From the NCBI GenBank assembly GCA_016186425.1, contig JACPLR010000009.1, forward strand, positions 1-61,708: a DNA stretch of 61,708 nt, read 5' to 3'. Shown here piece by piece: positions 13,800 through 47,876 of the stretch (positions within the stretch are counted from its first letter, which is position 1; each line of letters starts with the position of its first letter). The position numbers and the translations under genes are program-made. This stretch comes from Candidatus Pacearchaeota archaeon (lineage in GTDB: Archaea; Nanobdellota; Nanobdellia; Pacearchaeales; GW2011-AR1). The notes beneath the pieces were generated by a model that saw only the letters and a program-made list of their open reading frames with translations, made no database searches and had not been told where the DNA came from.

Positions 13800-16700
13800 T
13801 TACCTAAAATCCCTTGTCTTTACTGTTTGCTTTTTAAACTTCATAATCCGGCTAACCATAAAAAATGCAAAAACTAAAAATAAAACAACTATAACTCCTG
13901 CAATTATATTATCTGTGCCGGCATCTCTTTGAAATATCGCAAAACCGCTGACAGGTGTGCTCAAAACAACGCTTTCCTGAACAAAAGTTGAATATGTTTC
14001 TGAATTAATATTAACTAATAAATTAAAATCTCCCTTGGCCGAAGGATCGATTGGGATTAAAACTTCAAATTCTCCTGCAGAATTTTCAGCTATAGACTTG
14101 GTATCTTTAATTTCGGCAATTTTTTGATTCTCAGAATTAAACAATAAAAATTGCATTTCAACATTCTGCCTAATTCCGGAAACCTCTTCGATAGAATATC
14201 TCACCCTAACACCATTTTCTTGCTCTCTTTTAACCTCAAGAATATTAAAAGCTAATTTTTGTTCAATTATTTCTGCATCAAAACTTGTTGTTTCCTTTTT
14301 TTCAGAGCATTCAACACTAACTCCAATCCTATATTTTCCCTCTTTAGCATCATTAGGAACATTCAAACTAAATAAAAATTCAGATGATTCGCCTCCTCCA
14401 AGTTTTTTGCTTTCACTTGATTCAATCCAGCTAGAATACTCTCCGCTACCAACTAGTCTGCACGAATTCAAAAAGCTTAATCCAGAATTTTTAACACCCA
14501 AGGTTAATTTCTTGTTTTCTCCAGGATTTATTATTATATTGCCAATACTACTCACTTCTAATTTTCCCTGAAGTGTTGTTGATGGAACTAACCCAAAACT
14601 GCTTCCACTACTCCCTCCTCCGCCTCCAGATCCTCCGCCAGAACCACCAGATCCTCCAGAAGTTCCTCCGCCAGAAGATGTTGAAACCGAAAAAGAAGAA
14701 TTTGTATAATTAATATTTCCAGAAATATCTCTAGTATAAAAATGCAAAATATAATCAGAATCACTAGGAACACTAAAACTGGTACTGCTGCATCCAGAAA
14801 CCAGAACATTTTCCAATCCTGAAACCAATCCATTAGTTGACGCAAAAGTCACATTATAACTGCATGTCAATTCATTAATTTGATCTGCATTATCTGAAAT
14901 ACTGAACTGCAAAGGAATATCTGTCTTGCTTGACTTTGCTCCTATCGGCTGGCTAAGTATTAAACTCGGATTTGTAATGTCTTTTTGAATAGTTAAATTA
15001 TATATTGTAAAGGAAGCTAAATTATTAGCAGAATCATTTGCATAAACAGTTAAATTATAAGTCCCGTTAATCTGTCCAAAACTTATATTATTATTTCCGT
15101 TAATGCAATTTACAGAATTATTATTACTCCCTTTATTAAAGCTATGCCAACAATTTCCTAAATTTAAATCAGAAACCGAGAAGTTAAACTGCAAAGATAA
15201 ATTTCTTTTAAATAAAGTATTATTTGCAGGATAAGATACACTTAAATTAGGGGCTAAACTATCAATATTAATTGTAAAATTATTCAAGGCAAAAGCAGAA
15301 AAAGTGTCTGTACAGTAAACATTCCATAAATAGCTTCCATCAGTAAAGTTAATCATAAAATTATTTATTCCTCCACTGGTATTAACTGCAGAAGAATTTA
15401 TTTTGTTAATATTCCATGCTCCAGAAGCATTTGTAAACAAGCTGCAATTTTTTATTGTTGCAAAGGTATTTACATTGTAATTAAACTGGACATTATTTCC
15501 ATTACTTAGCCATTTTCCATTGTTAGGAGCTTCTAAAGAAACCGCAAGCTGTGTATTAACAGAAAAATTTCTTGCAGCAAAATTTACATTCCCTAAAGTA
15601 TCGTTTGCATAAAGTCTCAATGCATGATTTCCATCTCCAGAAACATTAAATGTTATATTTTGGCAGTTATTTATAGTATTGTTTGCTCCATTATTTAAAT
15701 TATACCAGCATTTGCTAACTCCAATGCCTGAATCAGAAACAGAAAAATTCAAAGGCAAGGTATTATTCACAGAATATGTTCTAGCTTCCGGCAAAATAAT
15801 ATCAATGTTTGGCCCTTGGGAATCAACAAAAAAGCTCCTATTAGTATAATTTAAATTATTAAAAGTATCATTTACATAGGCAATTATTGTGTTGCTTCCT
15901 TGAGCAAAAGTATAACTTATCGGAGTTGTATAAGTTATATTTGTGCTTCCATTATAAAACCAAATACCCGAAATCCCACTTGAATCAGCTGCTGAAATAT
16001 TAACAAGTATTGTTGCATTTGTATAATTCTGATTAGCTGGAGAAATAATTGTTAAATTTGGTGCAGAGTTATCTAAAATCGTATATTCTATGGAGGTATT
16101 GAAAAGTTGCGGAGCTATTCCAGCATCCTGGCTTGTTAAATAAGCTTTATACTGAAAATACCTTCCAGTTAAATTCAGGCCTTTTAGGTTATTAAAAGAA
16201 CTTGAAAAATAAGCGGTAGTAGAATTTCCAGGACCAATAAAAATTCCATCTGAACAGTTTGCTAAAAAACATGTTTTAACTTGAAATGTAACATTTGTTG
16301 TTTTTAAAATTGCAGTCATTGTTCCGACAAGCCCGTTTGCTCCATTAATATTACTAGCTATTTTGCTAAAAGTAACTCCGCCATCTGTTGATTTATATGC
16401 ATCCTCATTACCATCAATAACATGAACATTCCCTTGAGAATCAACGCTAATTGCCTGTCCATTTGCAGCAACTCCTGCTCCGTTAAAATCATCATTTATT
16501 TTATTCCAGCTTATGCCCGAATCATTTGATTTCCAAACATCTTGAACATCTAAAATATAAAGAGTATCATTTGAAGAAATAGCCATGTCATCAACATTAT
16601 TTCCTTGAGCTCCATTATAATCATCTTTTATTAAAGTCCAGGTAGTCCCATTATTGCTACTCATCCATATATCTGCCTGATTATCTGCCGCAATTAAAGT

Positions 16701-17375
16701 ACTAGAACTATTTACAACAAAGCCAAAAACATTTCCGTTTCCGCCGTTAAAATTACTCGCTGTTTTGCTCCAGTTCACTCCAGAATTATTGCTTACCCAG
16801 ACATCTTCATCACCTTCGATAATATACATTAAATTCCCTCCATTTAAGGCAGCTGAAATGGCATTTTGCCCTTCTGCTCCATTATAATCCCCAGTTAATT
16901 TTGTCCAATTAATTCCAAGATTCTCGCTCCTCCAGACATCCTGGTTAAAAATAATAAAATAACTTCCGCTTTTATTGAAAAAAGAGCTTGTTACTCCATT
17001 TCCATCGCCGTTATTATAATCATCTTTAACTAAACTCCAATTAACTCCAGAATTTGTTGAATTCCACACATCTGATTGAGCATCAACCGCATAAATATAT
17101 TCTTTAGTTGGAATGCTAAAACTTAGGGAAAAATTATCCCAGCTTGAAATGCTTATTGCATCAAAAACCCTTGAAGTGAATGTCCCGCTTAAATTACTTG
17201 CACTTAAAACAACAGCACTTCCATTATAACTTGAATTCAAGAAAGTTCCATTATTAAAATTGCTCTGGCTTATATCGCTAAAATTCGCTGCATAGACAAA
17301 TGTCACTAGAAATATAATTCCAAATATTAAAAATAAACTCTTTCCTCTTTTATTCATAATTCCTCTAAGAATCAA
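13800..17375 (-). CDS. Large secreted, C-terminally anchored surface protein: six BNR/Asp-box repeats, Ig-like repeats, a Gly/Ser linker, a CARDB-like domain and a TM anchor
   Basis: Signal peptide KRGKSLFLIFGIIFLVTFVYA. Six SxxxGxxW repeats (WNSTNSGVNWS, WRSENLGINWT, WVSNNSGVNWS, WMSSNNGTTWT, WKSNDSGISWN, YKSTDGGVTFS). Repeated modules of roughly 90-100 aa are dense in NxS/T sequons. Linker SSGGGTSGGSGGSGGGSGGGGGSSGSS. C-terminal TM IIAGVIVVLFLVFAFFMV followed by KFKKQ. Confidence 0.75.
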   Translation of the reverse strand: MILRGIMNKRGKSLFLIFGIIFLVTFVYAANFSDISQSNFNNGTFLNSSYNGSAVVLSASNLSGTFTSRVFDAISISSWDNFSLSFSIPTKEYIYAVDAQSDVWNSTNSGVNWSLVKDDYNNGDGNGVTSSFFNKSGSYFIIFNQDVWRSENLGINWTKLTGDYNGAEGQNAISAALNGGNLMYIIEGDEDVWVSNNSGVNWSKTASNFNGGNGNVFGFVVNSSSTLIAADNQADIWMSSNNGTTWTLIKDDYNGAQGNNVDDMAISSNDTLYILDVQDVWKSNDSGISWNKINDDFNGAGVAANGQAISVDSQGNVHVIDGNEDAYKSTDGGVTFSKIASNINGANGLVGTMTAILKTTNVTFQVKTCFLANCSDGIFIGPGNSTTAYFSSSFNNLKGLNLTGRYFQYKAYLTSQDAGIAPQLFNTSIEYTILDNSAPNLTIISPANQNYTNATILVNISAADSSGISGIWFYNGSTNITYTTPISYTFAQGSNTIIAYVNDTFNNLNYTNRSFFVDSQGPNIDIILPEARTYSVNNTLPLNFSVSDSGIGVSKCWYNLNNGANNTINNCQNITFNVSGDGNHALRLYANDTLGNVNFAARNFSVNTQLAVSLEAPNNGKWLSNGNNVQFNYNVNTFATIKNCSLFTNASGAWNINKINSSAVNTSGGINNFMINFTDGSYLWNVYCTDTFSAFALNNFTINIDSLAPNLSVSYPANNTLFKRNLSLQFNFSVSDLNLGNCWHSFNKGSNNNSVNCINGNNNISFGQINGTYNLTVYANDSANNLASFTIYNLTIQKDITNPSLILSQPIGAKSSKTDIPLQFSISDNADQINELTCSYNVTFASTNGLVSGLENVLVSGCSSTSFSVPSDSDYILHFYTRDISGNINYTNSSFSVSTSSGGGTSGGSGGSGGGSGGGGGSSGSSFGLVPSTTLQGKLEVSSIGNIIINPGENKKLTLGVKNSGLSFLNSCRLVGSGEYSSWIESSESKKLGGGESSEFLFSLNVPNDAKEGKYRIGVSVECSEKKETTSFDAEIIEQKLAFNILEVKREQENGVRVRYSIEEVSGIRQNVEMQFLLFNSENQKIAEIKDTKSIAENSAGEFEVLIPIDPSAKGDFNLLVNINSETYSTFVQESVVLSTPVSGFAIFQRDAGTDNIIAGVIVVLFLVFAFFMVSRIMKFKKQTVKTRDFR

Positions 17376-29650: not shown

Positions 29651-30655
29651 ATGGAAACACAAGCAGTTTTACCAGTAGAAACAAAATATAGTCAGAATTG
29701 GCATAAGTATAATTTAGCTAAAACACACGAGAAAAGAATGTTCTATCAGCTTCTTCATGAATTATGCCAGATTATTCCTGAACCTGATTATAAATTTGGG
29801 AGACCACCAATACCAATTAAAGATATGATTTTCTGTTTAGGACTAAAGTTATATTCAAATTATTCTGGGAGAAAGGTTATGTCTGATTTAGTTCATGCTG
29901 AAAGAGCTAATTACATTATGAAATCTCCTCATTTTAATACTTTAACGGATTTTTTAGCCTGTGATATAACTTATGATCTCCTTCAGAAGATTCTTACAAT
30001 TTCTGCTATGCCTCTTAAAGAACTTGAAGACCAGTTTAGTATAGATTCAAGTGGTTTTGGTTCATATCAATATGAAAGATGGCAAAGAGTTAGATTTTCA
30101 AGGTCTTATGAAGTTAGCTCAAGAAATTATCTTAAAGGACATGTTTGCATAGGAACAAGAACTAATGTAATTGTAAGTGCAGAAGCAACATACGGCAATC
30201 TTTCAGATGTAAAGCAGGCACCTGCTCTTCTTGAAAAGGTAGGAAAGAACTTTAATATAAAAGAGGTTTCAGCAGATAAAGCATATAATGCCCATAGAAT
30301 ATTTGAAATTATCGAAGAAATGAATGCTAAGCCATTTATAGCTTTCAAATCAAATGCAAATCCAGGTAAGGACTCGCCAGAAATATGGAAGCGAATGTAT
30401 GATTATTTCGTCCTTAATCGTGAAAGTTTCATGAAACACTATCACAAACGTTCAAATGTTGAAACAACCTTTGCCATGATAAAACTTAGATTAGGAGAAT
30501 TTTTAAAGTGCAAAAATTATACAAGTCAGAGAAATGAACTGCTGATGAAGTTTATCTGCCATAACATAACTTGTCTTGTTCAAGAAATATTTGAGAGTGA
30601 TGTTCACGTTGATTTTCGTGAATGCATGAAAAAATATGTTGAGGTTAAAATTTAG
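29651..30655 (+). CDS. DDE transposase (IS4/IS5 superfamily)
   Basis: DDE triad context: FSIDSSGFG, EVSADKAYN, and YHKRSNVETTFAMIK (Y-x2-R-x3-E-x6-K). No clear terminal inverted repeats were identified. Confidence 0.8.
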   Translation: METQAVLPVETKYSQNWHKYNLAKTHEKRMFYQLLHELCQIIPEPDYKFGRPPIPIKDMIFCLGLKLYSNYSGRKVMSDLVHAERANYIMKSPHFNTLTDFLACDITYDLLQKILTISAMPLKELEDQFSIDSSGFGSYQYERWQRVRFSRSYEVSSRNYLKGHVCIGTRTNVIVSAEATYGNLSDVKQAPALLEKVGKNFNIKEVSADKAYNAHRIFEIIEEMNAKPFIAFKSNANPGKDSPEIWKRMYDYFVLNRESFMKHYHKRSNVETTFAMIKLRLGEFLKCKNYTSQRNELLMKFICHNITCLVQEIFESDVHVDFRECMKKYVEVKI

Positions 30656-33229: not shown

Positions 33230-33334
33230 GCAGGGGTAGCGAAGTGGTCAAACGCACGGGACTCAAGACTTGAGGCGATAAGTTAGAAATCCCGTTCCTT
33301 AGTGGATTCACAGGTTCGAATCCTGTCCCCTGCA
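33230..33334 (+). tRNA. tRNA-Leu (anticodon CAA) with a canonical 21-nt intron
   Basis: Class II tRNA: GCAGGGG, D arm GCG-AAGTGGTCAAA-CGC, anticodon arm CGGGA-CTCAAG[acttgaggcgataagttagaa]A-TCCCG, long variable arm, T arm ACAGG-TTCGAAT-CCTGT. Confidence 0.85.
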
Positions 33335-33490: not shown

Positions 33491-34123
33491 CTAATCCATC
33501 CAGACATCATATAGTCTAACAGAAACTTTTTTTTCATGAAAGAATCTTTTTAATTCATTTACATATTCTATGGGAACTAAAATATCTCCCTTTCCTAGTT
33601 TTATAGCATTAATTTTCTCAGCCAATCCAGCATATTTTTTCTTGCCTATTTTAAATCCAAATAATTTTCTAAAAATAGAAACTCTTTTGCTATCTGGCTT
33701 TATATTTTCAAAAGAAAATATTGTATAATGCTTGACTTTTTCAATATCTGACTTATATTTTCCATAAAGCATTATTCCCGTATTCATAACCGCTCTTTTA
33801 AGATCTTTCCATTCATTACTATCTAATTTTCCCGAAATTATGGATATTTCATTAGCAAGGCCTTTCAATTCCCATTCTTTATAAGAGTTTGTTTTATAGT
33901 AAGCCTCAAGTATATTATTTATCTTTTTTTCTAATTTCTCTGATTTAATATCTCTAACATCAATAAAGAGGTCAATATCAGACTCTTCATCAAAATCTCC
34001 TCTTGCAACCGAGCCATGCAAAATAATCCTGTTTATTTCACCATTTTCCACTTTAGATAAAAGATAAGAGGCAAAATCCATTGCATAGGCTATAAGTTCA
34101 TTTGTTTTCAATATTTTTTCCAT
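33491..34123 (-). CDS. Pol-beta-superfamily nucleotidyltransferase (MNT-like) with a C-terminal extension
   Basis: ILHGSVARGDFDEESDIDLFID is the GS-x-D-x-D NTase motif. Confidence 0.7.
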   Translation of the reverse strand: MEKILKTNELIAYAMDFASYLLSKVENGEINRIILHGSVARGDFDEESDIDLFIDVRDIKSEKLEKKINNILEAYYKTNSYKEWELKGLANEISIISGKLDSNEWKDLKRAVMNTGIMLYGKYKSDIEKVKHYTIFSFENIKPDSKRVSIFRKLFGFKIGKKKYAGLAEKINAIKLGKGDILVPIEYVNELKRFFHEKKVSVRLYDVWMD

Positions 34124-34523
34124 TTTTTAAGCCTCCCAAGTTATCATTTATAATTTTCCTAAGCTCATTAAAATTCCTTATGGATTTGTTAATTCTATTT
34201 TTCGGCTTTCTATTCTCATAACACAAAGCAGTTCTTTCCAATTCAATAGATTTCATTAATAATAAAATTCCTTGTTTTGAAGGAAAGTCAAATGGAATTC
34301 TTTTTTTAATTAAATTGTCGCTTTTAAAAATTCTATGGTCTATTTGATCTCCAGAACCCTGCAAAAGTCTTAATTTATGCAGATATATAGCCAAAAGCTC
34401 AACAGAGCCTTGAGAAATATTATAGCCGATATTTCTCTGATTTTCTTCAATGCCTTCTTCAATAGCTTTCTTTATGTTGGCCAAATGCTCTTTGTAAGCT
34501 TTTTCATGCTCTTCTATTTTCAT
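34098..34523 (-). CDS. HEPN-like helical protein (putative partner of the NTase)
   Basis: All-helical 141-aa ORF that overlaps the NTase gene by 26 nt. No clear Rx4-6H motif was seen, so the call is tentative. Confidence 0.4.
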   Translation of the reverse strand: MKIEEHEKAYKEHLANIKKAIEEGIEENQRNIGYNISQGSVELLAIYLHKLRLLQGSGDQIDHRIFKSDNLIKKRIPFDFPSKQGILLLMKSIELERTALCYENRKPKNRINKSIRNFNELRKIINDNLGGLKNGKNIENK

Positions 34524-35255: not shown

Positions 35256-38200
35256 TTATGCAGAACAAAATTCACCTTTCCATTGATTAAATGAATTAAG
35301 AACATTATCTACATATTCTTGATTATCTCCACCCTTGTAAACTTTCAAAATGCAAATTAATTGTTTAACATCATCATCTAAATTGCATTTTGTATAACTA
35401 CCAGCAGGATTATCAAATGCATTTTTTAATTCTGCTGATGCTTTTTGAACTTGGACTGTTGGATTGTCAGCAAAATCCTCTCTGCTTTCTAATTCATCTC
35501 CATAACCCATAAAAAATCTATGAGTCTCATCTACAGTCATGCTAGATTCCCATTGAGATATAGAAGTTAATAAAGCTCTAAAGCTTTCTTCACTAAATCC
35601 ATTTGGATAAGAATTAGAATATTTCTCAAAATAAGTTTTATATGTTTCATACTTCTGATCATAATTATTAGATACGCCTTGCGTATTTTTAATATCGCAA
35701 TTCAATGACGTCTGAACAGAAGAAGTATATCCAGGTTCATTAATAATTTCTGGTTGAGAAATGAAATTTGAATTAGATTTACAAGAAAGAAAACCATAAT
35801 AATCATTATTCTTCCTTACATCGCTTTTTGTAAGTGCTTCTTTGCTTACGCTATCCTCTCTATTTCCTCCAATTATTTCTAAATTATCACCATTAACAGA
35901 CACAATAATTCCACAATGTCCCAAACTTCCTGCTTTCAAATTCGCAAATGTAACAGGACATCCACTTTCCCTACAATTACATAAAATATCTCCCACTTTA
36001 ATATTATCTAATTGTTCTATAGAATAAGCATTACAATCATATTTTCCAGGATCGTCTCTTATCTTAGTAAAATAATTTGAATGTGAAGAATCAAAAGGGA
36101 AATTTAATCCTGCCTTTTTTACAACGTAAGAAATAAATACTGCAGACCAAGGAACATTTTTACAATTTTGTGGTTGTAGATTTATAAAGTTATAATATTC
36201 TTTTAATACACTATTTCCTTCAGTACTACATTCTTGAATTTTTACATAATTCCATCTATTATATTCACTTAAAGCAATATTCGCAAGTATATTTTCTTCT
36301 CTAACTCCCTCTTCCTCCACTTTTCCAGTTTCAACCTCTCTTTTCTCCTCCTGTCTTAATATAAAATTTATCCAAGAAATCTCAGCCATAGCATGATTAA
36401 CTCTTGCTCTGTCAAACAAGATTCTAGCATCCTGGTCAATTGTTGGTATAAACTTGCTTTTCAAATAATCAAGCTTTGCAAAAAGAACTTTAGCTTCGTT
36501 TTCAGATTCATCAATAACTAATCCTGTTGCAAACAACTTGGCAATTCTGCTTTCAATTTCATTTAATTCTCCTTCAATTTCTCCATTAATTCCTATTCTT
36601 TTTTGATTTTCTATTTCATCTAGCTGCTCTGCATATTTATTCAATGTATCAGTTGTTGCATTCCTGATTCCAGCAGCTCCCGGAGTTAAAGCAACATTAA
36701 TAGAATTTTGATCAAGCCAGCAAGCAACTTTCTGGTCATCACAATAGCCTACTTTCAGCCATCTTTTAATATTTGTTGGCCCGCCAGGATTATTTGTAGC
36801 ACAAACTCTTACAATTCCACTATTGTAAATTTGCGGATTAATTAACTCTTCAGTTCCTGCTTGAATATTGGGATTTACCAATGATAATGCTCCCGAAGTG
36901 CCGGAAATGCAGGCTCTCTCGCTTGTTATTTGCGTGTTTGTTAGCTGATTCTGAATATATTTATCTCTTAAATAATCCAAGGCAAATGAAGTTGATACTT
37001 GCTTGAAACCGCATTCTTCCTGCCCGTTAACCCTCACACAAAGCTGCTTAAATCCAGATGGAGCTGTAAAGTCTCTTGCCTCGCTAGTATACTCTCCTCT
37101 TCCAACAAAACCAGTAGCAACTGTTACAGCACCTGTCGGCTGGAAAAATGATTCTCCAGGAGCATCTCTTAAATAAACACTATAATAAACTCCGGAATCT
37201 TTTCCTGCAAAAATATGATAAAAGACTTTATAGTGTGAAGTAGCAGGTATTGTTGCATCACTTTGTTTTATCTCGTCAAACCAGGCTGAAAACTGCGGAG
37301 GAGAATCTGGCTCAATTAAAGTCTGAAATTTTTTAGGATATTTTGTTGAAACAAAAGATTTGCATATTTGTGTTCCAACATCTTGAGTTGACCTTAACTT
37401 ATAAGCATTAAAAGCGCTCTGCCCGTATTGATTTGTAAAAAAGTTAATTGAATTCTGCATATTGCTCCAAGCTGCCTGAACATTCAAATACTCTCCCCCG
37501 CCTCTAATACCTCCTTGCCCTGTTGCAAACTCTAATAACTTGGGAATAAAAACATTAAGTATAGGAGAAACTTGTTTCCAGAAAAACTCGCACTGATACA
37601 CTGCAGTTATCTCATCACAAATTCCAACATACCTTCCTGTTGTAATGCTTTCCTGCAGGCAGTCTCGCGAAGCTTTTAATATAGAAACATAATTATCAAT
37701 CCCAGCATGAACTCCTGTTAAACAAACCGGAATAAAAATTCCTTCCTTGTAATTCGGCAAGCATAAAAATAAACTTCCGGCAATTCCGCTCTGCACAACA
37801 TCATTAACATAATACTTTCCTCCAAGATTACAGCGAGATGAAGGGCAGATTACAGGATCGCAAACATTAAACAACAATTGGCAATCTTTTGGCGACATAA
37901 AATCAGCGCATTGAGTTATTGCATTATTTGTTGCAGGATTCCCGACTTTAATTCTTCTGCCCAAAATATTGACAAAAGCAACCCCCGGCTTGTATTGGCT
38001 TGCTGCCTGTTGCAAGGCATTAATTGAATCTGCAACCTTTCTTTTAGCTTCAGAATCTGACAAACCATAAAATTGCGTTGCTGGCTGGCCTGTAAAAGTA
38101 TTAAACTGCTGGCAATTATCATCGCCAAACCCTGAATCAAATTCAGCCCTTCCATTCTTGCCAACATTGCACAGCCAGAAACTTGAAACCAATCCAGAAT

Positions 38201-41200
38201 CTTGGTAAACTTTAATATTTCCAAATGCAGGAAGTGTCTGCCTTGTCGCAGCATACCATCCATTAACTAAATCAATAGGAACAATTGCAGGCATGCCTTT
38301 GTATGGCTCTGTTTCATAATACCTTACTTCAGGATCTTTGTAAGGATTTTGATAAGATTGAGAATCTAGTTTCTGAAGAACCCTGCCATTATAAGTTTCA
38401 GTAAGGCTATCTTTTATTGTTTTAGTATCTTTTTCATTTATTTTTTTTGAAGTGTCAACTTTATTTCCATTTTTATCATAAACCTTATCAAAATCAAGAG
38501 TAAACTTATCTAAAGAATTTGGAATAGAATTTAATGCAACATAATAAGATGTCGATCCTAAAATAACTGAAGTTACAGGAGTTGCTTTATCTAATCCCGC
38601 AAATTGCCCATTAATAGTATCAACCCTTGCGCCATAATAATAATCAGTAACTTGCGCTCCTAAAGCTGTTCTAGGTGTCAAAACTCCCATTTTACCAGCT
38701 ATTCCACTAGCTTTTGCTTCGCTCTCAACTTTCTTCGCAATCTCAATTTCATCCTGAATTTCTTTTGCCTTGCTTAAGCTTGTGTATAACTTTCTTTCAG
38801 TCATTTCCTTAAGTTCAGGATTATCCTTTATGTTAGGATCATTAAGAATTCTTAACCTTGTTTCAATATCTCTCATCTCGGGATAACTTATGCTATCTGG
38901 AGATAATCTTTCTTTTTTAATAACATCACTGACTTTTATTGGATTTTCTCCTTTAGGATCTTTAAATTCAAAATTATTGCTCCCATAATTTTCAATTAGA
39001 TAATTAATATTCAGATCAGTGGATTTTTGAATGTTAACTTCTTTTCCTCCCAACAAACCAGATGATTTCACAACATCTGGTGTTGTGCTTTCCATATTTT
39101 TTATTCTCTGGCTTACATCATTCATATGTTTTGCAATTAGCTCAACTTCTTTTTCAATTGCATTGCTGTTTTTCCTAAAGCAATCGTCAACACTCGCATA
39201 TCTTCCTTGAGTATTTTTCATTTCTTCCGCGCATCTCTCATGCCATCCCCCCTCTCCTCTCATAACTTCTTGCCTTGCAATTGCCTTGCCTCCAAGATTT
39301 GCAAATAAATTTTTAACCTGCAATGCAGCAGAAGTTGCAAAGCAAGCTGCCTTCATTCCCTTAACAACACTTCCAAGACTTTCTGAAATATTCTGCCACT
39401 TAGCAATGCTCTCATTTAATCTTTTAATTCTTTCAGCAGCTTTTTCAGGATTTAATGGGAAAGCTCTTTTCTCAATTCCAATTGCATAGCTGACATTTGC
39501 ATAAGAAGCTAAATTATTAATTTGAGGGGTAATTCTTATTCTGGCAACTCTCTGGATATTTATCTGCTGAACATAAACATCCCTGCCGCAAATAGAAGCT
39601 CTGCTTCCAACAAAAATATTTTCTGTTTCTCTTCTAGAGCTTCCATCATAAACACAATTTCCAATAATTTCTGCAGCTTGCTCATCAAACCTTCCTAATT
39701 GAATATTTGTTTCAGGTTTTCCAGTTGATAAATCATTGCCAGGAAAGATTAAATAATCGCCAGTTTGTTTCGGAGTTTTCAAATCACCATCAACTAAAAT
39801 CTTAACATCAAGCTTATCAGAACTAGGATCTTCAACACTTCTTAACTGAAGAACATGTGTCTGCCCGTAAAGCTCAAAAACAAAACTTGCTGCATCAGAA
39901 TTTAGCTGAGAATTGCTCAAAACACTAGTTCCTGCTGGCAGCTCCTTTTCTGAATTAGGATATTTTTCATTAAATCTTAAAACAAGATCTGCTAAAACCT
40001 TTCCTTTTTTAGTCCCGCTTGCAAGTCTTATTGCTTCAATCAAAGATTTCTTTCCATAAGTTTCAGGATTTTCAACTTCTTTTGCCTGAGAATAATACGG
40101 AACATCTCTGTAATCCTCCTCAACAACTTTATACTGATCAATAGAACTGCTAAAATAATTTTCAAATACACTATCTCCTGTTGTTATCTCATTAGAGCTA
40201 ATAAAATTTGAGAATTTAACGTCCTTACCTTGATAATCACGAATACTTTCTCCTTGTTTTATTATAGCTATTTCATATTGCTTATTATTATAATTTAAAC
40301 TTTGAAATCCCGTATTAACTTGTTGATTTGATAAAATATTTAATCTCTGTTTTAATTCATCAGTTAATTGCTGACCATTATCTAAAGCAATTAAAACAGC
40401 ATAAGAACTTCTGTCTAACTTCGATATTCCAACACTGCCCAAATAAATATCCGCGTTTCCTCCACTATATAATTTCTCTCCGGGAGAATAACCAACACTA
40501 TTGCTTCCTGGAAAATCAAGAGCAACATTTTTTAATTTTAGCTGAAGGCTAAATTGCCTTTGTCCGTTAGTTGTTTGGCACGAACCTATCACTGTTCCAG
40601 AATCAGCTCCGCTTGTTACGACATTTGTAACCTTGCATATTCCTCCGGCAATTAAATCTCCCCTATAAACATCTTGAACATCCTGGTCAAAAACAATTGT
40701 TGCTTTCTTCTCAGGCCTGACAGCATCAACATAAGTTACAGAATAAGCAGCACTGCAATAAAATCCTGGCAAGGCTCTTTCAGAAGACCTTCCTTTCTGC
40801 ACAAAAAAAGAATCAATCCTCCTGTTTGCATCAGAATAAACAGAAATCCTAATTCCGGTAGCTTCAATAGAATCAACTCGTATAAAATTCTTTCCATCCA
40901 TAAAAGTGTATTGAGGATAATTTGCAGCCCATTCAGCATCGCTTAAAACCGGAATATTTTTTTCATTAATTCCTGTTCCAAATGCATAAGAAGAGCTGTA
41001 TTGAATTCTTGCAGTTAAATTTCCTGCAACAAAATCACTTAAATTTCTTTCATTTGGCTGCTGTTTCAAAATTATTACAACATAACCAACATTATCTAAA
41101 GATGGAAAACCATTCTGCCCTATTTTAGGTGAAAGCCCGTATCTTGCTGGCTGGTAATAACTCACTCCAGTAACACCATTAGGAAGCATTCCAGAATAAC

Positions 41201-42164
41201 TGAAAGTCATTGCTCTTATATCCTGCGGATTTATTGACGGATTTATCTGAAGCGCTTGTAATTTACAAAAAACAGGAACATTTTGTTCAGCTAATAAATC
41301 ACTTCTTACAACAGCAGGTGTGCATCCTCCGGGAGCAATTTGCAGAATAAAATCCTGCCTCTCTCTGCAAAATTCTCTTGCAGAGCTTGCATTTCCTCCA
41401 TAGATAAAAGGATATAATGCTGATGAAGGAACTCCCCCATAAGCTCCACCATAACTCCCTGCAAATCCTGGCCTCAATTGTGGATTAGAATAAAAATAGC
41501 TTCCTCCAGCCCCATTAAACTGCCCGCCAACATTGCTCCCATAAAACCTATCACTGCTAGTCACAGGATTGCTTGCAAATCTTTGTGTTCCAACATTTAT
41601 TCCAGTACCACTGCTTGTAATTGGTTGGGCTAAAACAAATGATATTAAAAAAATAATTAAAACTAATAATAAGAAAATAAGCATAAAGAATTTATTAGTT
41701 AATGAGTTGCTGCAAACACTAGTTAAATTAAATAATCTTGAATTATTACAAACACCTGTTAAATTAAATTGATTACTGCAACTTAGTTTAGGATTATTAG
41801 TTAATGAATTATTGCTTGCCTTAAATTTATTATAATTACTTTCATTACTTAATCTAACTGAATTAAACCTAGTTGTTTCTATATTTTCAGATTTAATATA
41901 ATTTCTACTGCTATCTAAGTTATTGTTAATCTTTTTATTATATTTTGAATTATAAAAAATATTTAGATCCTTTAACTTATTATTATCTTGCTTACTAATT
42001 AAGTTGTTTTTTATATTTCCAGATTTATTATGATTTCTATTACTATTCAATTTATAATCAAGTTTATTACCCAATAACTTAGTAAATTTTTTCATTTCTA
42101 CATTTTCAAAAATACCATATGATTTCCCATCTATTTTTTTATTTTTCTCTTTTGTTTTTTTCAT
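35256..42164 (-). CDS. Giant (2302 aa) membrane-anchored, Cys-rich surface protein with a C-terminal DUF2272/CHAP-like domain and a lytic-transglycosylase-like domain
   Basis: Uninterrupted 6.9-kb ORF. It has an Asn-rich N-terminal 160 aa, then a TM/signal segment MLIFLLLVLIIFLISFVLA (residues 161-179). C-terminal motifs are PWSAVFISYVVKKAG ... GHCGIIVSV..LEIIGGN and LLTSISQWESS. Confidence 0.8.
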   Translation of the reverse strand: MKKTKEKNKKIDGKSYGIFENVEMKKFTKLLGNKLDYKLNSNRNHNKSGNIKNNLISKQDNNKLKDLNIFYNSKYNKKINNNLDSSRNYIKSENIETTRFNSVRLSNESNYNKFKASNNSLTNNPKLSCSNQFNLTGVCNNSRLFNLTSVCSNSLTNKFFMLIFLLLVLIIFLISFVLAQPITSSGTGINVGTQRFASNPVTSSDRFYGSNVGGQFNGAGGSYFYSNPQLRPGFAGSYGGAYGGVPSSALYPFIYGGNASSAREFCRERQDFILQIAPGGCTPAVVRSDLLAEQNVPVFCKLQALQINPSINPQDIRAMTFSYSGMLPNGVTGVSYYQPARYGLSPKIGQNGFPSLDNVGYVVIILKQQPNERNLSDFVAGNLTARIQYSSSYAFGTGINEKNIPVLSDAEWAANYPQYTFMDGKNFIRVDSIEATGIRISVYSDANRRIDSFFVQKGRSSERALPGFYCSAAYSVTYVDAVRPEKKATIVFDQDVQDVYRGDLIAGGICKVTNVVTSGADSGTVIGSCQTTNGQRQFSLQLKLKNVALDFPGSNSVGYSPGEKLYSGGNADIYLGSVGISKLDRSSYAVLIALDNGQQLTDELKQRLNILSNQQVNTGFQSLNYNNKQYEIAIIKQGESIRDYQGKDVKFSNFISSNEITTGDSVFENYFSSSIDQYKVVEEDYRDVPYYSQAKEVENPETYGKKSLIEAIRLASGTKKGKVLADLVLRFNEKYPNSEKELPAGTSVLSNSQLNSDAASFVFELYGQTHVLQLRSVEDPSSDKLDVKILVDGDLKTPKQTGDYLIFPGNDLSTGKPETNIQLGRFDEQAAEIIGNCVYDGSSRRETENIFVGSRASICGRDVYVQQINIQRVARIRITPQINNLASYANVSYAIGIEKRAFPLNPEKAAERIKRLNESIAKWQNISESLGSVVKGMKAACFATSAALQVKNLFANLGGKAIARQEVMRGEGGWHERCAEEMKNTQGRYASVDDCFRKNSNAIEKEVELIAKHMNDVSQRIKNMESTTPDVVKSSGLLGGKEVNIQKSTDLNINYLIENYGSNNFEFKDPKGENPIKVSDVIKKERLSPDSISYPEMRDIETRLRILNDPNIKDNPELKEMTERKLYTSLSKAKEIQDEIEIAKKVESEAKASGIAGKMGVLTPRTALGAQVTDYYYGARVDTINGQFAGLDKATPVTSVILGSTSYYVALNSIPNSLDKFTLDFDKVYDKNGNKVDTSKKINEKDTKTIKDSLTETYNGRVLQKLDSQSYQNPYKDPEVRYYETEPYKGMPAIVPIDLVNGWYAATRQTLPAFGNIKVYQDSGLVSSFWLCNVGKNGRAEFDSGFGDDNCQQFNTFTGQPATQFYGLSDSEAKRKVADSINALQQAASQYKPGVAFVNILGRRIKVGNPATNNAITQCADFMSPKDCQLLFNVCDPVICPSSRCNLGGKYYVNDVVQSGIAGSLFLCLPNYKEGIFIPVCLTGVHAGIDNYVSILKASRDCLQESITTGRYVGICDEITAVYQCEFFWKQVSPILNVFIPKLLEFATGQGGIRGGGEYLNVQAAWSNMQNSINFFTNQYGQSAFNAYKLRSTQDVGTQICKSFVSTKYPKKFQTLIEPDSPPQFSAWFDEIKQSDATIPATSHYKVFYHIFAGKDSGVYYSVYLRDAPGESFFQPTGAVTVATGFVGRGEYTSEARDFTAPSGFKQLCVRVNGQEECGFKQVSTSFALDYLRDKYIQNQLTNTQITSERACISGTSGALSLVNPNIQAGTEELINPQIYNSGIVRVCATNNPGGPTNIKRWLKVGYCDDQKVACWLDQNSINVALTPGAAGIRNATTDTLNKYAEQLDEIENQKRIGINGEIEGELNEIESRIAKLFATGLVIDESENEAKVLFAKLDYLKSKFIPTIDQDARILFDRARVNHAMAEISWINFILRQEEKREVETGKVEEEGVREENILANIALSEYNRWNYVKIQECSTEGNSVLKEYYNFINLQPQNCKNVPWSAVFISYVVKKAGLNFPFDSSHSNYFTKIRDDPGKYDCNAYSIEQLDNIKVGDILCNCRESGCPVTFANLKAGSLGHCGIIVSVNGDNLEIIGGNREDSVSKEALTKSDVRKNNDYYGFLSCKSNSNFISQPEIINEPGYTSSVQTSLNCDIKNTQGVSNNYDQKYETYKTYFEKYSNSYPNGFSEESFRALLTSISQWESSMTVDETHRFFMGYGDELESREDFADNPTVQVQKASAELKNAFDNPAGSYTKCNLDDDVKQLICILKVYKGGDNQEYVDNVLNSFNQWKGEFCSA

Positions 42165-42183: not shown

Positions 42184-44133
42184 TCATCTTAAATTTAAAT
42201 TCGCTCTCGCACTTTCATATAACTCATAATTCTGCTGCAACTGGTCAAGATTGCTTGGAGCAGGCAACGTGTCAATTGATATTTCAATTTTATTTGCATT
42301 TTTCAAATCACTATTCAAAATATAATCTTGTATTTTTCCTCCCGCGCTTAAAGCATTGCTTAGTGTTTGGCTCGGAATGCTAACATCAAAACACTGCTGA
42401 TTCTTTTTTCCAAAAAATCCTAACAAGCCAGACGCTGGAACATCAACACATTGCCTTGTAGAGCTTCCAGGAATTGTCAAAGAACTTCCAGAGAATACCT
42501 GGATGGAAACATTGTAAAGCCCTTCGCCCAACTTTATTTTTTTGCCTTGGTAATCTCCAGATAATAAAGCAACACTAAAACTATTTTTCTCGCTCTCAAA
42601 ATTAATCACGGCAACATCTCCTTCCTGTCTTGGCTTAAATTCCTGCCCACTAACAATCAACCTTAATTCCAGCTCATAAAGTTTGCTTAAAGGAACATTA
42701 ATTGTATTTGGCTCGTTTGTTGAAACAATCACTTCTTGAGGCAAATAACCTTCTGCCTTTGCAATAATCTTGCCATTAATGCATTGAGGAAATGCTGCTG
42801 AAAGTTTTGCATCCTTGCCAGCAATCTCTGTCTTGCCTATAAGACATTTTGTGTTAAAGCAAACAAAATCAATATCAGATTCAATAGGATCTAATTCAGG
42901 GCTGTAAGCATCATAAGTGTAAACATCCATTCTTGTGTTTTTGTAATTGCAAATCTCATCAATAGTTCCTTCTTCGCTAACACTCTCTCCCTCCAATGAT
43001 TGTCGTGGAACACTTTTATCAACAACAACAGAAACCGGAAACTGAAATATTTCCTCCTGATCATAAACCTGAATTAAAACAGGATAATAAATATCGTAAA
43101 CAAAATGATAAGGCACATAACAAAATCCAATAATTCCCATTCCTTGTTGAAGTCCAACAGGCTCTGAAATTAACAAATTTCCGTCAGCAGGCCAGATTTC
43201 AATTCTTGTCGGCCAGTTAGGATTATACATAAAGTTAACTTGCTCATCACTTTGGATTTCATCAACTATAAAATACTTGTTCTCTTTCTTTTTCAAATCA
43301 TAATAATCTCCCTTAATTTTCAAAGTGCCTATATTTGCGCTTAATCCTGTTCTAATATCATCAACAACTTCCTGTGCTTTCCATATTTTTGGAGCGCAGC
43401 TTAATTCACTTCCAGTTACTGGCGCGTAATTATACATAACATCTACAGAATAATTTTCCAAAAATGAGTCTTTTTTCTCTCTTTCATAAATTTCTCTGGC
43501 TAAATTATAAAATTTTCCGAACTTGCTCACAACTTCTATATCATAACTTGTCCTTCTAGAACTTGAATCGCCTTTTGAAGCAGAAATTTCATTGCTTACA
43601 CCAACTAAAACTCTATTATCAAGAATTTTAACATTAGTTTCCAAATTATTTCCGGTTTCAACACTAATTCCTTGCTTGACAAAATCAGAAAAATCACATC
43701 TCTTAAGTTCCTGATCTAAAAAATCCTCTAACTGTGATTCTATTTGCGATTTAGAAGGAACTTGTTCTTTAACAATACCATTAGCAGAAACATAATACCA
43801 ATAAGGAACAGGTGTTCCAAGAAAATCAAGTTGCGATGAAAAGGGTGCGTACTGGCTGCCTTGCTTGAATTCAGGAACTTCAATATAGCCTCCCTGGCCT
43901 CCTGCAATTTTTAATGCTTCTAAAGTATCTTTCTTAACACAGCCCTCAAAAAAAGTATAAACTTCTGAAAATTCTCCTTGATTTTGCGAAGCAAAAAGCC
44001 GGTCTCTTAAGACATAAACTGTTATTCCTAAAGCAACAACTAAAACTGCCACAATTATAAAAATTGTAACTTGTCCTCTTTTATTTTTTATTTTGTCTAA
44101 TTCACCTCTTTTACTTCTCATTCTTCCTCCCAT
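42184..44133 (-). CDS. 649-aa secreted protein with an archaeal class III (type IV pilin-like) signal peptide
   Basis: N-terminus ...KIKNKRGQVTIFIIVAVLVVALGITVYVL ([KR]G-Q followed by a hydrophobic stretch). The C-terminal region looks like a beta-sandwich (GKIIAKAEGYLPQEVIV). The gene ends 19 nt upstream of the giant ORF. Confidence 0.7.
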   Translation of the reverse strand: MGGRMRSKRGELDKIKNKRGQVTIFIIVAVLVVALGITVYVLRDRLFASQNQGEFSEVYTFFEGCVKKDTLEALKIAGGQGGYIEVPEFKQGSQYAPFSSQLDFLGTPVPYWYYVSANGIVKEQVPSKSQIESQLEDFLDQELKRCDFSDFVKQGISVETGNNLETNVKILDNRVLVGVSNEISASKGDSSSRRTSYDIEVVSKFGKFYNLAREIYEREKKDSFLENYSVDVMYNYAPVTGSELSCAPKIWKAQEVVDDIRTGLSANIGTLKIKGDYYDLKKKENKYFIVDEIQSDEQVNFMYNPNWPTRIEIWPADGNLLISEPVGLQQGMGIIGFCYVPYHFVYDIYYPVLIQVYDQEEIFQFPVSVVVDKSVPRQSLEGESVSEEGTIDEICNYKNTRMDVYTYDAYSPELDPIESDIDFVCFNTKCLIGKTEIAGKDAKLSAAFPQCINGKIIAKAEGYLPQEVIVSTNEPNTINVPLSKLYELELRLIVSGQEFKPRQEGDVAVINFESEKNSFSVALLSGDYQGKKIKLGEGLYNVSIQVFSGSSLTIPGSSTRQCVDVPASGLLGFFGKKNQQCFDVSIPSQTLSNALSAGGKIQDYILNSDLKNANKIEISIDTLPAPSNLDQLQQNYELYESARANLNLR

Positions 44134-44815: not shown

Positions 44816-44920
44816 TGGCCCTGCCAGGAATTGAACCTGGGTCCTATCCACGTCAAGGATATGTCCTTTATGGGTTTATTAACCTTAATTAAATAATACT
44901 GACCATTAGACTACAGGGCC
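44816..44920 (-). tRNA. tRNA-Val (anticodon GAC) with a 33-nt non-canonical intron in the D loop
   Basis: On the minus strand: GGCCCTG-TA-GTCT-AATGGTCA[gtattatttaattaaggttaataaacccataaa]GGAC-A-TATCC-TTGACGT-GGATA-GGAC-CCAGG-TTCAATT-CCTGG-CAGGGCC-A. Removing 33 nt leaves a 72-nt cloverleaf. Confidence 0.85.
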
Positions 44921-45954
44921 GTTTTAAATGGTAACTTAAGATCTTTATATAAATCTTGCGACATATAATTAGGAACTTCCTTAAGATAAATTGTTTTATT
45001 GTTATAAGCACGATTATAAAACCTAATGATATGTTTGTGATTTGAACTTCCAACAATTTTAAAATATTTCACTACATTTTCCCATTTATTTGTACCAACT
45101 TCTTTTCCAGTAAAATAAGTAAAAATACCTATATCTTTCCCAATTTTATAAACTTGATCAAGTAAAATAGGGTTATGGGAATAAAATTGAACACAAAATT
45201 GACTTCCTCCTCTTCCTCTTCTTGAAACAGATCCGTCAGTATCAACAAGTCCCCTTAAACAAGCAATAGCTAGTTTTTGATTATCAAAAATAATTTGTGG
45301 GATACAAGACTTATTTCTTATTTTATTGCCATATTTCAAACCAAATTCTTTATTTAAAAAAGAACATAATTTATTCGAATAAACGGTTAGGTAAGAGGTA
45401 TTATGAATTTTATTTTTCTTAATTGAAGATGAAATCCCAAATAATTCTTCAACTAATTTGTTTATATAAATAAAATAATTTAGATCGTAACGATAATCTC
45501 CAGAAATCCTCACAAAGTATTTTGTCATCGTTCCATCTCCTAAATAAGTTCCTATGAACTCTGCTAATTTTTCATTAACTTCCGGCAATAAGATCTCTTT
45601 TGAATTTGAATAGGAAGAATGTTTAATTGCTTGTCTTCTCCATTCCTTAATCTTGTCTGGATATTTTCTTTCCAAAGACTTAATCCCTTTTTTTCCACCA
45701 ATTGAAGCACCCCAATTAGCTGACAAATAGGTAACTTCAAGAGATTCTTTATCGATTAATAAATATTCTATGAGATAATTAAATAAACTTTCTGGAATTA
45801 AAAATTTTTCTTGAGCATATTCCTTAATTGTTGAATATGGAATTTTTAGGCTAATGCTTAATTTTCTAAGAGAACCTATTCTAGAAGCTACATTAAACAA
45901 CAATTCTCTTTGCTTACCTTTATTTAACTTAACTCTTCTTTCATGTTTATTCAT
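44911..45954 (-). CDS. Free-standing LAGLIDADG homing-endonuclease-like protein with an N-terminal HTH region
   Basis: LAGLIDADG motifs are LAEFIGTYLGDGT and IACLRGLVDTDGS. The N-terminal HTH is LRKLSISLKIPYSTIKEYAQ. The last 10 nt overlap the 5' end of tRNA-Val. Confidence 0.75.
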   Translation of the reverse strand: MNKHERRVKLNKGKQRELLFNVASRIGSLRKLSISLKIPYSTIKEYAQEKFLIPESLFNYLIEYLLIDKESLEVTYLSANWGASIGGKKGIKSLERKYPDKIKEWRRQAIKHSSYSNSKEILLPEVNEKLAEFIGTYLGDGTMTKYFVRISGDYRYDLNYFIYINKLVEELFGISSSIKKNKIHNTSYLTVYSNKLCSFLNKEFGLKYGNKIRNKSCIPQIIFDNQKLAIACLRGLVDTDGSVSRRGRGGSQFCVQFYSHNPILLDQVYKIGKDIGIFTYFTGKEVGTNKWENVVKYFKIVGSSNHKHIIRFYNRAYNNKTIYLKEVPNYMSQDLYKDLKLPFKTAL

Positions 45955-47751: not shown

Positions 47752-47876
47752 GCCTCTGTAGCTCAATGGTAGAGCAAAGAATTTTAGTATAAGACTAAAC
47801 TCGCTTAGCTGCCTTGTAGCTAAATAATTGCTTGTAAGAAAGCAGTAGGTTGAGAGTTCAATCCTCTCCGGAGGCT
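47752..47876 (+). tRNA. tRNA-Thr (anticodon TGT) with two introns: 31 nt between the D and anticodon stems, and 22 nt at the canonical 37/38 site
   Basis: GCCTCTG-TA-GCTC-AATGGTA-GAGC-A[aagaattttagtataagactaaactcgctta]GCTGC-CTTGTA[gctaaataattgcttgtaagaa]A-GCAGT-AGGTT-GAGAG-TTCAATC-CTCTC-CGGAGGC-T. 72+31+22=125 nt. Confidence 0.8.

Follow-up and report, generated by a model that had tools for sequence, protein, structure and literature searches.

A DUF2272 domain and a putative lysozyme-like module at the C-terminal tip of a giant Pacearchaeota protein

The window analyzed here, a 61,708-nucleotide stretch of contig JACPLR010000009.1 from a Candidatus Pacearchaeota archaeon, has a G+C content of ~30% and contains, besides archaeal genes including those of TFB and ribosomal protein S3Ae, a giant open reading frame (ORF) on the minus strand that encodes 2302 residues (Table 1). 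An initial annotation of this DNA had placed two wall-degrading modules in the C-terminal 345 residues of the product (residues 1958-2302, encoded by 35259-36293 on the minus strand), a DUF2272/CHAP-like module followed by a lytic-transglycosylase-like module with an E-S motif. Every string it quoted is found in the translation of this tail, namely NVPWSAVFISYVVKKAGLNFP at residues 2003-2023, GSLGHCGIIVSVNGDNLEIIGGN at 2079-2101, FRALLTSISQWESSM at 2195-2209 and GYG at 2220-2222, and the plus-strand reading of the same segment has many stop codons. The tail domains are far above chance, as indicated by the Pfam score of DUF2272 and by the recurrence of the last module in 89 cluster representatives. 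The first module belongs to DUF2272, whereas the second probably represents a very divergent lysozyme-like family, and the two might together open bacterial peptidoglycan.

Table 1. Coordinates of the giant ORF, its segments and predicted functional residues, and the adjoining partner gene (alignments A2 and A4 are described in the text)
Feature	Coordinates	Strand	Basis
Giant ORF, 2302 aa plus stop codon	35256..42164	(-)	ORF translation; 831 homologues in Pace-/Nanoarchaeota
N-terminal extension, aa 1-157, Asn/Lys/Ser-rich, low complexity	41694..42164	(-)	BLAST alignments of relatives start at query aa 140-266
Sole hydrophobic segment, aa ~158-182, ...MLIFLLLVLIIFLISFVLA/QP (end VLA/QP)	41619..41693	(-)	Kyte-Doolittle scan
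Conserved body of the giant-protein family, aa ~183-1930 (~1750 aa)	36375..41618	(-)	Homology to relatives
DUF2272 domain (module 1), Ser-type papain-like CHAP/NlpC-P60 fold	35772..36320	(-)	aa 1949-2131 (A4 profile match); Pfam match aa 1998-2108
Ser2007, nucleophile position, W-S-A motif	36144..36146	(-)	Invariant in A2 and A4; N-terminus of model helix
His2083, predicted general base; adjoining Cys2084 nearly invariant	35916..35918	(-)	A2/A4; start of model β-strand
Asn2101 (I-G-G-N), predicted third triad member	35862..35864	(-)	Invariant in A2, nearly so in A4; model
Linker between modules, aa 2132-2162	35679..35771	(-)	Interval between the module 1 and module 2 matches
Terminal module (module 2), aa 2163-2302, unnamed, putative very divergent SLT/lysozyme-like	35259..35678	(-)	Family search, model, hhalign
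Glu2206 of the E-S motif, putative catalytic acid	35547..35549	(-)	C-terminal end of model helix 43-58
Partner gene for a 649-aa protein, 19 nt upstream of the giant gene	42184..44133	(-)	Orthologues in L007 and L008

The DUF2272 domain

Pfam search assigned residues 1998-2108 to DUF2272 (PF10030) with an E-value of 7.4e-17 and 62.2 bits against a cut-off of 27, which, together with the conserved residues and the predicted fold described below, bears out the initial assignment of module 1 to this CHAP/NlpC-P60-related family. In contrast, CHAP itself (PF05257) stayed below its threshold (14.2 versus 26 bits, E=0.065). The only NCBIfam match, TIGR02594, was sub-threshold as well, and PHROG gave weak matches of the DUF2272 part to baseplate hub/tail lysozyme and endolysin families. 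Module 1 is thus CHAP-like in fold and not a member of CHAP, in view of the sub-threshold Pfam match and the lack of a catalytic Cys.

Two alignments of the domain, one of the query with six relatives (A2) and one with 49 relatives (A4), revealed the conserved residues. The query keeps all the invariant columns of A4 (W2006, S2007, F2010, S2012, H2028, G2058, D2059 and H2083) as well as the nearly invariant G-G-N at 2099-2101. Of the signature given in the initial annotation (W-S-A-x-F-[IV]-S, H-x-G-I-V and I-G-G-N), the Trp, Ser, Phe, Ser and His are accordingly invariant and G-G-N nearly so, whereas the remaining positions are only partly conserved. The position of the Cys nucleophile in CHAP and NlpC/P60 enzymes is occupied by Ser in every aligned DUF2272 sequence. 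The initial annotation would have given up the assignment if the catalytic Cys/His pair were absent; His2083 is present and the Cys position holds Ser2007, as throughout the family, so that a test on Cys was mis-specified. This agrees with the description of DUF2272 as a family with a conserved Ser instead of Cys within the NlpC/P60-CHAP group of papain-like enzymes (Ozhelvaci and Steczkiewicz 2023, PMC10318531).

The AlphaFold2 model of module 1, built on A4, has a mean predicted local distance difference test (pLDDT) score of 87.3. In this model Ser2007 starts helix 63-73, His2083 starts strand 138-147 and Asn2101 ends the hairpin strand 150-158, a predicted layout that is canonical for papain-like enzymes. 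Structural similarity search against PDB using Foldseek revealed that the model resembles the CHAP endolysin Ly7917, with an E-value of 2.6e-4 and a probability of 1.0, in addition to PlyGRCS, PlyC, LysK CHAPK and E. coli MepS/Spr. A weak match to the pseudomurein endoisopeptidase PeiR was also found (E=0.04).

The query differs from its family in setting: DUF2272 is described as mostly proteobacterial and its members are short, whereas the domain here sits in an archaeal protein of 2302 residues and shares at most about 42% identity with the bacterial relatives listed. A tblastn search retrieved DUF2272-annotated genes of bacterial plasmids and a single gene of a Caulobacter phage, with identities of 31-34%, and all source-named DUF2272 relatives are bacterial or phage. 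Bacterial DUF2272 proteins are frequently fused to PG_binding_1, PG_binding_3, GH25 or CHAP, which points to peptidoglycan as the substrate of the family. In the Nostoc plasmid pNOS3756_2, a conjugative MPF_T element (L005), the DUF2272 gene adjoins the gene of a ~1150-aa “AAA-like domain-containing protein”, and in Caulobacter phage Ccr34 (L006) it comes after the gene of a ~1630-aa “PE-PGRS virulence associated protein”. A wall-opening accessory role would suit both genes.

The terminal module and its relation to SLT domains

Standard annotation is silent on the end of the protein: residues 2131-2302 have no match in Pfam, NCBIfam, PHROG or the PDB sequences. PDB sequence searches with the 345-residue tail and with profiles of four and 44 module 2 sequences returned only calbindin and HuD at chance level, and a word-index homologue search with the 345-residue tail alone found nothing. 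Relatives came instead from whole-protein and exhaustive profile searches. Module 2 recurs among the relatives of the giant protein in P0024, P0056 and P0114, and a profile of these three with the query (A1), searched exhaustively against 1.84 billion cluster representatives, found 89 proteins only, 73 of them at E<=1e-10. About half of the family members are giant (1775-3430 aa); the others are short and fused to Peptidase_M23, PG_binding_1, SLT or NlpC/P60. Two members are source-named, P0114 (P0049 in the homologue listing) and P0127, both as “Candidatus Pacearchaeota archaeon”. In P0056 and P0114, module 2 is the sole recognizable tail domain, at the place where sister proteins have SLT. 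In P0024 it lies at residues 341-483, inserted near the N-terminus of the body and not at the C-terminal end; therefore module 2 is mobile within the family.

Across an alignment of 71 module 2 domains, P2187, F2195, L2199, M2219-G2220-Y2221, C2260, C2271, Y2276, G2279, Y2284 and W2295 are near-invariant, along with Q2238 (70/71) and Y2257 (69/71). The query retains all these positions and Glu2206-Ser2207. In a subfamily with Gln at 2206 (“RQSN”), Gly2220 is replaced by Glu (“MEY”) in five of eight cases, a swap which suggests that a carboxylate is needed at the site and has been relocated. A further subfamily, “NNW”, has Asn at 2206 and no obvious compensating change.

The AlphaFold2 model of module 2, built on an alignment of 44 sequences (A3), has a pLDDT of 92.3 and a predicted template modelling (pTM) score of 0.89. 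It is all-helical with six helices, and Glu2206-Ser2207 sits at the C-terminal end of helix 43-58. The catalytic Glu of lysozyme-superfamily enzymes occupies a corresponding place. Comparison of A3 by hhalign with an alignment of the SLT domains that Pfam detects in 13 sister giants gave P=1.5e-4 over 117 columns, in a register that aligns QWES-S with KQES-N, LMGY with GLMQ, VYxxG with AYNxG, and Y-x-x-x-V...W-K with Y-V-x-K-V...Y-K. Against the score of 31.9, 100 column shuffles gave 10.3+/-1.7 (maximum 16.2), so that the real score lies ~12.7 standard deviations higher; the reversed alignment scored 12.2 and the unrelated DUF2272 alignment 18.3. A comparable signal was obtained between SLT and Phage_lysozyme2 (P=1.9e-4), which are two related lysozyme-like families. 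With the 71-sequence alignment the match to SLT was weaker (P=7e-4 over 35 columns). Module 2 showed no relationship to the Phage_lysozyme2 tails of sister proteins (P=0.12), and its match to the DUF2272 alignment (P=0.041 over 17 columns) was taken as noise.

Fold comparison pointed in the same direction at non-significant scores. The four best Foldseek matches in PDB and the one at rank 14 were the CwlT entries 4HPE and 4FDY, which we take to be bifunctional lysozyme and NlpC/P60 enzymes, the GH73 autolysin Auto and a GH23 chitinase (E ~1-5, template modelling (TM) scores 0.36-0.53). In a viral library the best named matches were GH73-like, SLT, phi29 gp13-like, phage tail lysozyme and LT_GEWL (E ~1-7, TM scores up to 0.56).

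Module 2 thus shares several features with SLT/GH23 domains (PF01464, e.g. E. coli Slt70): the order and spacing of the E-S, (G)LM(Q/G) and (A/V)YNxG motifs, a Glu at the end of a helix, an all-helical fold, and the architectural position that the SLT domain has in orthologues. It differs in its own hallmarks, the near-invariant Gln2238, Tyr2257 and Trp2295 and the Cys2260/Cys2271 pair. Several results weigh against kinship with SLT. The Pfam SLT model has no match in the query at E<=1 and matches only two of 44 module 2 members, at best with E=0.095; sequence profiles of PDB entries are blind to the module; each fold match is individually weak, with E about 1 or worse and TM scores of 0.36-0.56; the hhalign probability is 51% and falls to 26% with the 71-sequence alignment; and Glu2206 is kept in 48 of 71 family members (68%), the other 23 having Asn, Gln or another residue. 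The SLT-like reading offered by the initial annotation therefore stands as remote homology with the motifs in register, and not as membership of a recognized family with a universal Glu. On balance, the profile comparison and the model argue that module 2 probably belongs, as a very divergent member, to the lysozyme/SLT superfamily; that it is catalytic is less certain.

The giant protein, its locus and its exchangeable tails

The whole protein has 831 homologues, of which the 119 listed are 1701-2765 aa long and share 35-51% identity over ~75% of the query; the source-named ones among them are all Pacearchaeota or Nanoarchaeota. The homology covers about residue 155 or 265 to ~1930 and in most relatives ends at about residue 1822-1960. 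The N-terminal extension has no counterpart among the 119 listed relatives by BLAST. It is encoded by an open frame in very AT-rich DNA and is probably translated, because 157 stop-free codons in such DNA are, by our estimate, unlikely to arise by chance; a mis-called start was not adopted on the same ground. The hydrophobic segment that follows reads as a Sec signal peptide or a signal anchor, and relatives have a matching signal-peptide-like segment at their extreme N-terminus. With the extension translated, it would act as a signal anchor and not as a signal peptide that is cleaved off. Export of the giant protein is well supported by its sequence, as this single N-terminal hydrophobic segment has a Sec-signal-like position in relatives.

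The giant gene is a syntenic chromosomal gene of Pace- and Nanoarchaeota. In two other loci, L007 and L008, the gene order is S3Ae, a gene for a 612-626-aa protein, the giant gene, TFB and S8e, with NDK beside S3Ae in L007 only, and the window has the same order. The partner directly upstream of the giant gene, which has no Pfam match, shares 59% and 42% identity with the orthologues at this position in L007 and L008; therefore the two genes form a conserved cassette. The N-terminus of the partner, KRGQ-VTIFIIVAVLVVA (KRGQ-VTIFIIVAVLVVALG), reads like an archaeal prepilin-type (class III) signal. Because this housekeeping synteny is conserved, we rejected an origin from a provirus or as a tape-measure gene. 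Downstream of the giant gene, the interval up to TFB holds a nucleotidyltransferase (Polbeta/NTP_transf_2) gene preceded by a small ORF (33491-34523, minus strand), and a DDE transposase gene (29651-30655, plus strand) lies just beyond TFB. Both look like insertions, because the corresponding interval in L007 and L008 is shorter and without such genes.

The tails of the closest clade consist of SLT alone, Phage_lysozyme2, SLT with GH3, SLT with Amidase_3, or GH73 with SLT. The stacking of two wall hydrolases at the end of such a protein, which the initial annotation had pointed out, therefore recurs in orthologues at the same locus as the last three combinations. DUF2272 is absent from the other 206 related proteins compared. 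The tail of P0135 has an apparent Cys-type papain-like domain (our reading of the sequence, with no profile match) followed by module 2, and a tip of peptidase and glycosidase may therefore be a recurrent design.

Proposed role of the C-terminal tip

We propose that the C-terminal tip is a two-enzyme device, a peptide cutter and a glycan cutter, that opens bacterial peptidoglycan, a reading that we consider reasonably likely. The giant protein would leave the cell via its single N-terminal hydrophobic segment, and the ~1750-aa body would hold both enzymes away from the archaeal surface. Module 1, with Ser2007 in place of the usual Cys in a predicted triad with His2083 and Asn2101, might cut the peptide stems or the amide bond between N-acetylmuramic acid (MurNAc) and L-Ala, whereas module 2, with Glu2206-Ser2207 at the end of a helix as in lysozyme-type enzymes, might cut the glycan strand. 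Such a tip, aimed at bacterial peptidoglycan and exported by a Pacearchaeota-type DPANN archaeon, could make local openings in the wall of a bacterium, be it host or prey, and so serve attachment, access or scavenging. What tempers this proposal on the side of module 1 is that the activity of DUF2272 is still hypothetical, with no member biochemically characterized, and that papain-fold catalysis with Ser as the nucleophile is unproven (PMC10318531).

The working mode may be likened to that of phage tail lysins, VirB1 of type IV secretion systems (T4SS) and the bifunctional CwlT (ICEBs1-type; 4HPE, 4FDY). These and phi29 gp13 also have glycan-cutting lysozyme-like and peptide-cutting domains at the end of a penetration apparatus; for module 2, CwlT entries head the PDB fold matches and the top viral matches include phi29 gp13-like proteins, all of them weak. 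They differ in serving DNA or virion transfer and in being much smaller proteins, whereas the giant protein is chromosomal and archaeal and has the peptidase before the glycosidase.

Earlier studies reported giant extracellular proteins of Pacearchaeota and Woesearchaeota that contain murein-type lytic transglycosylase domains, and read them as tools to bind or degrade bacterial walls (Castelle et al. 2021, PMC8204110; Vigneron et al. 2022, PMC9723730; PMC11537232). The view of the initial annotation that this architecture is unexpected in a murein-less archaeon is thus superseded, because such proteins of this lineage are already published (PMC8204110; PMC9723730). What the present protein has in common with the DPANN giant wall-hydrolase group is the homologous body of ~1700 aa, the export signal at the N-terminus and an archaeal chromosomal setting. 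It resembles “fam00969”, as outlined in PMC8204110, in organism group, in its size of ~2000-3000 aa and as an exported giant ending in murein-degrading domains, a likeness drawn from the published description only. Several of its 119 listed Pace-/Nanoarchaeota relatives have Pfam SLT; the query differs from “fam00969” in having no Pfam-detectable SLT and a tail of DUF2272 and the unnamed SLT-like module. Our literature search found no description of a DUF2272 domain in such a giant protein, of the unnamed SLT-like module family or of systematic tail-enzyme swapping on syntenic orthologues. The pairing of DUF2272 with the unnamed module appears to be new; the giant wall-hydrolase type of protein is already known.

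The main alternative sees in module 2 a lysozyme-like relic that has no catalytic role and binds peptidoglycan or serves as a scaffold, which would leave DUF2272 as the sole enzyme, if any. The putative catalytic Glu is missing in 32% of the family, among them P0122 and P0123, which have tandem copies of the module and lack it in each, no structural or Pfam match is significant, and the module often stands beside bona fide hydrolases, as binding modules do. We nevertheless judge this alternative unlikely, since the query retains Glu2206-Ser2207 together with every near-invariant position, the coupled change of Glu2206 to Gln and Gly2220 to Glu suggests selection for a carboxylate, and the module alone takes the place of SLT in P0056 and P0114.

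That both modules act on an archaeal polymer, either the pseudomurein of a methanogen host or the surface glycans or proteins of the organism itself, seems distinctly improbable. It would fit an organism without murein, the weak PeiR match of the DUF2272 model and the archaeal hosts of cultured DPANN archaea (abstract of PMC8204110). Against it stand the interchangeable tails of orthologues, which are murein-specific (Amidase_3, GH73, NagZ-type GH3, SLT and Phage_lysozyme2), the fusion of PG_binding_1 to module 2 in other proteins and the bacterial or phage origin of all source-named DUF2272 relatives. Moreover, the β-1,3 glycan of pseudomurein is resistant to lysozyme-type enzymes. Still less credible, and in our estimate very improbable, is a tail that is a horizontally acquired, functionless and decaying appendage, or a gene of an integrated virus encoding a tail or tape-measure-like protein. 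Such an origin could account for the differing tail composition among orthologues, the PHROG matches to baseplate hub/tail lysozyme and endolysin families and the transposase and LAGLIDADG genes nearby; by contrast, both modules retain all their family-invariant residues, the giant gene and its partner keep their place between S3Ae/NDK and TFB/S8e in independent genomes, as befits a chromosomal core locus, and the body remains 35-51% identical in the 119 listed relatives.

Beyond the two-enzyme tip, a bolder and rather doubtful proposal can be sketched. The terminal 140-aa module might be a new glycan-cleaving family, a remote offshoot of SLT/GH23 known so far only from uncultured Pacearchaeota-type archaea, with its carboxylate at Glu2206 or at a Glu in position 2220; paired with a serine-type DUF2272 amidase, it might be what breaches the wall at the tip of an organelle-like giant protein used to parasitize bacteria, a cross-domain episymbiosis that is not demonstrated. 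All DPANN archaea brought into culture so far have archaeal hosts (abstract of PMC8204110), so that a life of Pacearchaeota and Woesearchaeota on bacteria is still a matter of conjecture. Both domains are small and well delimited (residues 1945-2135 and 2150-2302), and thus suit expression and tests on bacterial sacculi. An assay of module 1 would for the first time put a DUF2272 protein, one of the proposed serine-type papain-fold hydrolases, to an enzymatic test, and an assay of module 2 would do the same for a family missed by standard annotation; as standard models miss module 2, surveys of DPANN archaea based on GH23/SLT would overlook such proteins. By analogy with phage tail fibres, the swapping of tail domains on a conserved syntenic giant suggests that host interaction is diversifying.

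Apart from the giant gene, the window has a second large ORF of 1191 aa (13800-17375, minus strand). Three Rfam tRNA matches of 105-125 nucleotides, at 44816-44920 (minus strand), 33230-33334 (plus strand) and 47752-47876 (plus strand), were missed by ARAGORN, which suggests intron-containing archaeal tRNAs. The end of the LAGLIDADG-domain ORF (44911-45954, minus strand) falls within the 5' end of the tRNA at 44816-44920.

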